Part shown: positions 14,202 through 15,336 of the stretch, piece by piece
Layout of the letters: each line of letters opens with the position of its first letter
How positions within the stretch are numbered: the stretch's first letter is position 1
DNA from: a phage
Sequence record: PZ154895.1
DNA length: 64,000 nucleotides
Strand: one strand, 5' to 3'
Position numbers and translations under genes: made by a program
The notes under the pieces: model-generated
Seen by the model: the letters and a program-made list of their open reading frames with translations, nothing else
The model's database searches: none
What the model was told of the DNA's origin: nothing

Positions 14202-14537
14202 ATGTCTGAAGTACAACAGCTACCAATTCGTGCTGTCGGTGAATATGTTATTTTAGTTTCTGAACCTGCACAAGCCGGTGATGAAGAAGTTACAGAATCA
14301 GGACTTATTATCGGTAAACGTGTCCAAGGTGAAGTTCCTGAACTGTGTGTAGTTCACTCTGTTGGTCCTGATGTTCCTGAAGGTTTCTGCGAAGTTGGTG
14401 ATTTGACTTCTCTTCCAGTTGGTCAAATTCGAAACGTTCCGCATCCTTTTGTAGCTCTGGGTCTTAAGCAGCCAAAAGAAATTAAACAAAAATTCGTTAC
14501 CTGTCACTATAAAGCTATTCCGTGTCTTTATAAGTGA
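14202..14537 (+). CDS. 31: co-chaperonin for GroEL (GroES analogue)
   Basis: 111 aa; [30 protein letters not shown]... recognised as T4 gp31. Confidence 0.93.
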
Positions 14538-14545
14538 TATAAATA
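14538..14545 (+). promoter_or_regulatory. late promoter motif TATAAATA upstream of rIII
   Basis: exact tataaata immediately after gene 31 stop. Confidence 0.45.
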
Positions 14546-14663
14546 ATAATATGAATTGAGTTTCAATTCTATGTGGTAGTCTACAACTGAGAGATCTGTC
14601 GAAAGAAGATGAAATTCAGAAGAACGTGACTACCGAGTTTTAATCTCTAACGAGAATTTTTAA

Positions 14664-14912
14664 ATGATTAAACAATTACAACACGCTCTTGAACTGCAAC
14701 GAAACGCATGGAATAATGGTCACGAAAACTATGGCGCATCTATTGATGTTGAAGCCGAAGCTCTTGAAATCCTGCGTTATTTCAAACATCTGAATCCTGC
14801 TCAAACTGCATTAGCCGCTGAGCTTCAGGAAAAAGATGAACTTAAGTATGCTAAGCCTCTGGCTTCTGCTGCACGAAAAGCAGTTCGTCACTTTGTGGTA
14901 ACACTGAAGTAA
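14664..14912 (+). CDS. rIII: lysis inhibition accessory protein rIII
   Basis: 82 aa; MIKQLQHALELQRNAWNNGHENYG... recognised as T4 rIII; synteny next to gene 31. Confidence 0.85.
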   Translation: MIKQLQHALELQRNAWNNGHENYGASIDVEAEALEILRYFKHLNPAQTALAAELQEKDELKYAKPLASAARKAVRHFVVTLK

Positions 14913-15106
14913 TTTATTGGAGAGTCACTGCCTTAGTGTGAAGTTAAAACGAGGAGCCGTCGAACTTTGTTTTACGGTGTACCTCTTGAATGTTGACGAG
15001 GTTTATGGTTATCCTGTCGGTAAATATTCAAAACCTAAGTACCCCTTGAGGGCTTTCGCAGGCAATGCCAATAAGTCCTGCATTTTCATTTAAAAGAGAA
15101 TTTATA

Positions 15107-15283
15107 ATGGCAAAACAAGCTAAAGCAAAGAAAGCAGTTGAAAAGAAAGTTGGTGATTCTAAACGCGCTGGTTACAAGCGTGGGTCGAACTCTCGTATCA
15201 ATCAAACTGTTGAGAAGATCATGCGCCGAGCACGTGCGGTTCTTCGAGATGATGCTTCTCGTTTTGGTAAGCAGAAAGCATAA
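15107..15283 (+). CDS. hypothetical small highly basic protein (58 aa)
   Basis: MAKQAKAKKAVEKK... Lys/Arg-rich; own RBS; strong terminator follows; longer ORF 15065 lacks RBS. Confidence 0.5.
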   Translation: MAKQAKAKKAVEKKVGDSKRAGYKRGSNSRINQTVEKIMRRARAVLRDDASRFGKQKA

Positions 15284-15287
15284 GTTG

Positions 15288-15316
15288 AGGACTCCTTCGG
15301 GAGTCCTTTTTTATTT
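15288..15316 (+). terminator. rho-independent terminator
   Basis: hairpin aggactccttcgggagtcct with UUCG loop followed by tttttatttt. Confidence 0.8.
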
Positions 15317-15336
15317 TCCAAAGATTGCATAAAGTT

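Follow-up and report, generated by a model that had tools for sequence, protein, structure and literature searches.

What occupies the longest gap between genes in this part of a T4-like phage genome? The question concerns a 64,000-nt stretch of phage DNA (sequence record PZ154895.1; "the window" refers to this whole stretch), in which an earlier note, made from the letters alone, had pointed to about 190 bp without a convincing gene after rIII, among genes that mostly overlap or lie less than 60 bp apart. Both parts of that observation hold. The gap, 14913-15106, had been placed to the base: it comprises exactly the 194 nt between the rIII stop codon (TAA, 14910-14912) and the start codon of gene 30.9 (ATG, 15107-15109). 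The window is a segment of a Tequatrovirus genome: between 14600 and 15400 it does not differ from Escherichia phage vB_EcoM_G50 (100% identity) and shares about 97% identity with T4. In the G50 annotation the rIII-30.9 gap is the longest of 63 junctions between coding sequences across 40.6 kb, followed by junctions of 147 nt (gp31-rIII), 110 nt and 100 nt, the majority overlapping or being shorter than 60 nt. The answer proposed here, which we regard as moderately probable, is that the rIII-30.9 spacer is a transcribed modular RNA in which the first module (A) acts as a decoy for the toxin ToxN, or as the seed of one, and the remainder forms the leader of 30.9.

Module A is, as judged by sequence and pairing, homologous to one repeat of ToxI, the antitoxin RNA of type III ToxIN abortive-infection systems, the pseudoknots of which keep the endoribonuclease ToxN inactive. 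A covariance model (R2) derived from 13 plasmid toxI repeats only was run against the whole window and returned module A as its sole match, on the + strand, with a score of 28.6 bits (E = 7.9e-4). The DNA of the unit reads GGAGAGTCACTGCC, TTA and GTGTGAAGTTAAAA in succession (UGGAGAGUCACUGCC-UUA-GUGUGAAGUUAAAAC as RNA) and matches toxI repeats found upstream of toxN on Pantoea and E. coli plasmids. Against repeats 2-3 of Pantoea pBH6cv2_D (NZ_CP134748; CGGAGAGTCACTGCCGTTAAGTGTGAAGTTAAAAAAAT) all 31 aligned bases agree, and the only departures are two 1-nt gaps within loop L3, a loop described as length-tolerant (PMC3475682). ToxI units were defined by a length of 34-38 nt, a helix S1 between positions 2-5 and 12-15 and a helix S2 between positions 9-11 and 23-25. 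In module A, S1 joins 14919-22 to 14929-32 through the same pairs as in genuine Pantoea repeats (G-C, G-C, A.G and G.U), S2 joins 14925-28 to 14938-41 by Watson-Crick pairs throughout, and the A-rich 3' tail is also that of genuine ToxI. Across 26 units 96.2% of the cells of the pseudoknot are paired and three pairs show double changes; the covariation score of 0.258 compares with 0.135 after shuffling, and none of 500 shuffles scored as high. The compensatory changes include the 9-25 pair, called compensatory in the phiTE paper as well (PMC3475682).

The natural counterparts of this unit are plasmid-borne arrays: in pECA1039 toxI, AGGTGATTTGCTACCTTTAAGTGCAGCTAGAAATTC is repeated 5.5 times directly upstream of toxN, and variant repeat arrays precede annotated ToxN/AbiQ genes on plasmids of E. 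coli, Pantoea, Shewanella, Vibrio and Lelliottia. The R2 model also recovers units in other T4-like genera and in copies located in tRNA arrays, and the alleles differ by T4-like group, being of the pECA1039 type in Klebsiella phages, of the Pantoea/IncF type in the window and phiTE-like in some Mosigvirus relatives. A pseudo-ToxI of this kind is a known element so far described for phiTE. No description of one in T4-like phages was found in the literature searched, which was incomplete, an earlier description elsewhere being possible; two papers on T4 and toxIN make no mention of a toxI-like sequence in T4.

The phiTE pseudo-ToxI (Blower et al. 2012, PMC3475682) and module A are both phage-encoded, non-coding copies of ToxI with the same pseudoknot, intergenic and on the strand that is transcribed or, in the window, presumably so; in phiTE a tRNA gene stands about 300 nt away from the copy. 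They differ in that phiTE, an rV5-like phage, carries 1.5 tandem repeats, whereas the T4-like window carries one unit among other RNA modules, and in that the phiTE allele is that of toxI from Lelliottia and a 32-kb Pectobacterium plasmid, whereas that of the window is Pantoea/IncF toxI. Activity is known for expanded phiTE loci only, and the active escape loci have at least 2.5 units. Genuine toxI, for its part, consists of 2-9 tandem repeats that have a promoter to themselves and precede a terminator and toxN, whereas the window unit is solitary and has no toxN. The phiTE pseudo-ToxI was itself found to be 100% identical to genuine toxI repeats beside toxN on Lelliottia, Hafnia and Pectobacterium plasmids (loci L260 485-800 and L085 2948-3008), and is therefore a copy of the real antitoxin of another ToxIN variant.

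The region as a whole was compared among 56 loci possessing both rIII and 30.9, which gave 48 distinct spacers from at least seven genera. All 48 are long (120-416 nt), and 806 phage records match the spacer of the window. Close relatives are near-identical at both spacer ends and differ between them by insertions or deletions of 1, 44, 50 and about 160-200 nt, the spacer being longer than that of the window by 50 nt in T4, 95 nt in wV7 and 204 nt in Lutter and LZ9. No reading frame is conserved in the spacer, because these insertions and deletions break every frame. Set side by side, the 48 spacers resolve into discrete, independently folding elements that recur in different orders among genera (D-A-C-E-F, E-C-D, A-C-D-B' and C-B'-D-E-F), the order in the window being A, B, D, E, F and a Shine-Dalgarno hairpin (Table 1). 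G-U pairs are found on the + strand; read from the other strand these would be A-C, and the structures therefore belong to + strand RNA. The analysis of covariance and conservation that the earlier note had proposed thus finds the spacer conserved in relatives, with compensatory base changes. On this comparative evidence the + strand of the spacer specifies a structured RNA, conserved and non-coding. Rfam contains no match to 14913-15106 at E values up to 10, nor a family for any module in the long Lutter spacer or in ten metagenomic loci, and ARAGORN detects no tRNA or tmRNA in the window or the T4-like loci. A tRNA-like reading of modules A and B was dropped after the identity with ToxI emerged.

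Table 1. Features of the rIII-30.9 region, in window coordinates
Feature	Positions	Strand	Description or basis
gp31	14202-14537	+	First in the local gene order
rIII, 82 residues	14664-14912	+	Open reading frame list; named rIII in relatives; upstream gene of the transcription unit carrying the spacer
rIII-30.9 spacer, 194 nt	14913-15106	+	Non-coding mosaic of structured RNA modules
Module A, single ToxI-like unit (pseudo-ToxI), H-type pseudoknot	14918-14950	+	Plasmid-toxI covariance model
Module B, hairpin	14951-14985	+	Outer stem GAGG 14951-54/CCTC 14982-85; inner stem CCGT 14957-60/ACGG 14974-77
Module D, H-type pseudoknot	14994-15044	+	Helix P1 14995-97/15016-18 plus 14999-15001/15013-15
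Module E, mini-hairpin	15039-15056	+	GUA-CCC-CUUGA-GGG-CUU; stem 15042-44/15050-52
Module F, hairpin	15058-15081	+	Stem GCAGG 15058-62/CCUGC 15077-81; conserved 14-nt loop CAAUGCCAAUAAGU holding ATG 15065
Shine-Dalgarno hairpin	15083-15100	+	UUUUC 15083-87/GAGAA 15096-15100; also found as palindrome I1
Gene 30.9, 58 residues, very basic (PHROG 1427)	15107-15283	+	75-95% identity across genera
Intrinsic terminator	15287-15318	+	9-bp stem then T run; closes the rIII-spacer-30.9 unit

The inner stem of module B has undergone two independent compensatory changes, to CCAU/AUGG in six spacers and to CCGC/GCGG in copies carried by Phapecoctavirus. In T4 the loop of this hairpin contains a 44-nt insertion with covarying stems of its own, and the window has the short-loop allele. 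Loops of only 13-15 nt were seen in the window, in one other genus (L057) and in the Phapecoctavirus copies, T4 and most relatives having a structured insert of 55-62 nt. Two further modules are absent from the window. Module B' replaces B (stem-CCCA-stem-UGUACG-stem-GUAA-stem; L008 765-800, L032 486-520, L035 ~795-830, L076), its internal and hairpin loops being invariant and its stems fully covarying across genera. Module C, of about 140 nt, occurs in the spacer of many T4-like genera (541 records; L003 1040-1180 of phage Lutter, L007, L032, L034, L037, L076) and is at least 90% identical across genera; of the 43 pairs that RNAalifold predicts for it, a GNRA-type hairpin among them, 21 show compensatory changes, and it has no match in Rfam.

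Module D is an undescribed pseudoknot that was found in all spacers, in 47 of the 48 by pattern and in the remaining one as a variant form. Its helix P2 pairs the loop GGUU (15007-10) with AACC (15032-35), and a conserved A-rich linker occupies 15019-15031. In an alignment of 29 sequences 75.6% of the cells are paired, compared with 64.3% after shuffling. The covariation score of D is 0.342 against 0.167 when shuffled, none of 500 shuffles being as high and slid controls lying far lower. Duplexes between loop and tail average -6.2 kcal/mol for cognate and -4.0 kcal/mol for non-cognate combinations (0 of 5000 permutations). The conserved 5' flank of D (UUGAAUGUU, region 14986-14997) can in addition pair over 9 bp with the linker (AAUAUUCAA, region 15020-15031), the palindrome I2 joining 14986-94 to 15023-31; an outer helix would thereby be stacked beneath P1. 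In the wV7-type allele the pairing is preserved by an A-U to U-A change, and T4-type alleles pair less well.

Module E occurs in most genera at a spacer position that varies by genus, and its stem co-varies (CCU..AGG, CCUC..GAGG, GCCU..AGGC). It corresponds to one of the two stems named earlier from the letters, ccc-ttga-ggg (15042-15052), which is real and conserved; the other, of the form aaaacg...cgttt, is unsupported, the comparison favouring instead the inner stem of module B. In module F the stem is swapped to GAACUGG/CCAGUUC in two loci (L057 and L068) with the loop retained, and in Klebsiella-type phages it is longer (GGGAGC...GCUCCC). In the last hairpin the 3' arm contains the weak Shine-Dalgarno sequence of 30.9, and counterpart hairpins lie directly 5' of the 30.9 ATG in other genera (UCUCC/GGAAGA or CCUC/GAGG); the Shine-Dalgarno sequence is thus paired within a conserved local hairpin, as in leaders that sequester the ribosome-binding site. 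A long-range pairing between TTATTGG (14914-20) and CCAATAA (15068-74), present in the minimum-energy fold, shows no covariation and persists in phages without its 5' partner, and was set aside as fortuitous.

Modules B, D, E and F together with the Shine-Dalgarno hairpin are best read as a structured 5' leader of 30.9, which would most likely determine message stability and the frequency of ribosome initiation at 30.9. Of the functions that the earlier note had entertained, a small RNA or a regulatory leader fits the covarying non-coding RNA and the Shine-Dalgarno hairpin, and no support was found for an origin-like element, iterons and repeated boxes being absent. Structured translational leaders are familiar in T4, such as the autoregulatory pseudoknot of gene 32 and the hairpins sequestering the ribosome-binding sites of e, soc and 25. 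The spacer likewise combines a pseudoknot (D), lying ahead of a small gene, with a Shine-Dalgarno hairpin; it differs in having no sequence similarity to these leaders and no known regulator, and in that D is separated from the start codon by modules of variable order.

As to module A, ToxN is thought to be released during phage infection. In phiTE, expanded pseudo-ToxI repeats or captured ToxI suppress ToxN and allow the phage to escape (PMC3475682). In T4, rIII has promoters of all three classes, early, middle and late (PMC9409239), module A lies on the sense strand of rIII and 30.9, and no + strand terminator stands between the rIII stop codon and the unit, nor did a promoter and terminator scan find any + strand site inside 14913-15106. 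Because the unit is thus in sense orientation behind a gene with several promoters in T4 and without a preceding terminator, a ToxN decoy or a seed for expansion is the most likely role. Module A was probably captured from a toxIN plasmid; its pseudoknot would fill the ToxI-binding groove of a matching ToxN, presumably of the Pantoea/IncF type (that of pB207_F, NZ_OQ420462, or pBH6cv2_D) for which the decoy would be specific, and would top up the antitoxin once host transcription stops, so that abortive infection would be blunted. Alternatively, it could act as a seed that expands under selection, as in phiTE. We infer transcription through the spacer, binding of ToxN, the protective effect and the regulatory role of modules D to F.

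A countermeasure of T4-like phages to ToxIN is TifA (T4 gene 61.4), an 85-residue RNA-binding protein and validated inhibitor of ToxN with alleles that appear tuned to particular ToxN variants (PMC9391042, PMC10853763); the element in the window would, by comparison, be a putative RNA mimic. An identity of TifA with gp30.9 was excluded, TifA being encoded elsewhere in the genome by a gene of another number and length.

Units related to module A are not confined to this spacer. By sensitive blastn the first 76 nt of the spacer recur at 86% identity in unrelated Phapecoctavirus phages, where they take up a slot the size of a tRNA that lies between tRNA-Gln and tRNA-Pro; with the segment of phage ESCO13, modules A and B are 87% identical over 77 nt. 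That the A and B modules of the window are the best match to the Phapecoctavirus copy hints at a recent exchange between the two phage families. The slot recalls RNA C and RNA D of T4, stable RNAs other than tRNAs within tRNA clusters, with the difference that no tRNAs occur anywhere in the window. No second copy was detected at blastn level in T4-like genomes, each record matching in one place. A pattern search of IMG/VR recovered the core CNCUACCUUAAGUGNG with conserved flanks in many unrelated phage contigs, one of them with 1.5 tandem copies. Units confirmed by R2 were observed in many unrelated contigs on the strand of nearby tRNA genes, at distances of up to about 300 nt or with a tRNA on either side (L005 1500-1534, L006 1500-1534, L115 9200-9234, L118 3341-3413, L125 1050-1084, L108 46-82, L082 64-98), and one jumbo-phage contig (L083) has four ToxI-like copies. 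This distribution suggests that ToxI mimicry is widespread and that the units are co-expressed with phage tRNAs.

Several findings weigh against a functional, structured RNA of the proposed kind. The folding energy of the single sequence is not significant (z-scores of -1.0 for the + and -1.6 for the - strand), and being unremarkable it leaves the case for structure to the comparative evidence; P2 of module D is weak in the window allele, with only about 4 bp. The window has one ToxI-like unit and no tandem repeat, the start of module B (GAGGAGCC) being just loosely like the start of a second one, and wild-type phiTE, with its 1.5 repeats, is unprotected until these are expanded (PMC3475682). 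Between genuine toxI repeats lie A-rich stretches that end in AU (e.g. AAAUUC, AAAAAAAU), the AA/AU motif in these separators being the cleavage motif of pECA1039 ToxN, whereas the window unit is bordered by UAAUUUAUU/GGAG (UAUU/GGAG) on its 5' side and GUUAAAAC/GAGG (AAAAC) on its 3' side, lacks AAAU flanks, and may therefore escape processing; the T4 and Lutter alleles have AAAAU at the 3' side. T4, T2 and T6 are strongly restricted by one E. coli toxIN and escape through TifA, not through this locus (Laub laboratory), and T4 has a related unit in this spacer, the records of T2 and T6 aligning across the module A part. Finally, many Mosigvirus-type spacers lack module A, which is therefore dispensable.

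The strongest alternative draws on the same points. It holds that the region is purely a cis-acting leader and spacer with modules that all stabilise the rIII-30.9 message, process it or tune its translation, the ToxI unit being a decaying relic of recombination with a toxIN plasmid and having no present anti-defence activity. That pseudoknot D and the Shine-Dalgarno hairpin are universal while module A is absent from many spacers accords with this view, as do the solitary state of the unit, its missing AAAU flanks, the restriction by toxIN of T4, which carries a related one, and of T2 and T6, and the poor score of the T4 allele against genuine toxI (16.4 bits, E = 0.38 with R2). A relic, however, should have drifted, and the unit of the window is all but identical to a living toxI repeat and has its pseudoknot pairs intact. 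In addition, different genera carry alleles of different natural toxI families, suggesting repeated selection, and the unit is kept in the tRNA arrays of unrelated phages, where there is no 30.9 leader. We regard a purely cis-acting role as plausible but less likely, and prefer a ToxN decoy or seed joined to a 30.9 leader.

A different extension would make the entire spacer a set of interchangeable RNAs that act in trans as decoys or effectors, each released and each with a different host target, for example other RNA-guided or RNA-neutralised defence toxins, with D and C as new classes that possibly act with the basic gp30.9. The module order is shuffled between genera as autonomous units would be, one module (A) does match an antitoxin RNA, the A+B segment sits as a tRNA-sized insert in a tRNA array and ToxI-like units are often found beside phage tRNAs, and the near-invariance of module C with its 21 covarying pairs points the same way. 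Against this, modules B-F and a D+C+E+F spacer gave no blastn match among 72,556 plasmids and 5,426 E. coli genomes, so that mimicry of plasmid RNAs by B-F could not be shown. No second copy of module D was seen in the window or the Phapecoctavirus tRNA loci; a pattern scan of 185,579 genomes was uninformative, with only chance matches, rejected by model R1, among those listed. The constant location of D upstream of 30.9 fits a cis role equally well. An array of this sort is considered distinctly unlikely. The related and more speculative notion of hot-swappable counter-defence RNA cassettes, in which ToxI mimics would be just those members that can be recognised and D and C would be new classes that hijack or neutralise host RNA-binding defence proteins and are maybe assembled with gp30.9, is likewise held to be improbable, if marginally less so.

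It is very improbable that the gap codes for protein, either as an extension of 30.9 from the ATG at 15065 or as a 58-codon open reading frame starting with TTG (14917-15093). Both frames are open in the window, a long form of 30.9 is annotated in some database records, and the 15065 ATG is retained in Tequatrovirus, where it is in frame with 30.9, and in Mosigvirus. In the latter, however, a 1-nt deletion turns it into the start of a 13-codon upstream open reading frame with a stop overlapping the 30.9 start (UAAUG), and one further group has ACG at this position. The doubt that the earlier note had cast on the 15065 start is thus borne out, the start not being conserved between groups; 30.9 instead starts at the ATG at 15107, which opens a conserved N-terminus (MAKQ...) in six genera. 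The TTG frame is broken in close relatives by insertions or deletions of 1, 44 and 50 nt and has no match in PHROG, the query coordinates having run into the stop codon, and substitutions in the spacer preserve RNA pairs rather than codons. Within a structured leader, the arrangement of the 15065 ATG and the upstream reading frame could provide translational coupling that opens the Shine-Dalgarno hairpin. Klebsiella-type leaders were observed to read AUGUAUUUCUCC..AUGGAAGA, in frame or as an 8-codon upstream reading frame. A DNA-level element, whether a replication origin or a recombination hotspot, is scarcely credible: the site does undergo frequent insertion, deletion and module shuffling between phages, but a repeat search found no iterons or repeated boxes, G-U wobble is accepted on the + strand only, and we know of no T4 origin mapping to the rIII-30.9 spacer.

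The terminator that closes the rIII-spacer-30.9 unit is also annotated in G50, wV7 and Lutter, and gene 30.8 comes after it in the local order. A terminator-like site on the - strand in the gap is hairpin E read in reverse. Searches of Pfam and PDB gave no relative of gp30.9. The gp31-rIII gap (14538-14663; 147 nt in the G50 annotation) opens with a T4 late-promoter box, TATAAATA (14537-14544). The rIII product inhibits S1-dependent activation of the endoribonuclease RegB (PMC9409239), and GGAG, the RegB target, occurs twice just 3' of rIII, at 14919-14922 in module A and at 14953-14956 in module B.

ToxIN is a model abortive-infection system and T4 a model phage for escape from it. The only recorded mimic of ToxI RNA is that of phiTE, and the T4 literature searched credits escape to TifA. 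Spacer units of T4-like phages that track the toxI families, together with the units beside tRNAs, would mean that mimicry of antitoxin RNA is widespread and not a one-off, and they lead to a hypothesis, directly testable, on why therapeutic T4-like phages differ in host range. The analysis at the same time singles out conserved structured RNAs in one of the best-studied genomes, namely pseudoknot D and, where relatives have it, module C with its 140 nt.

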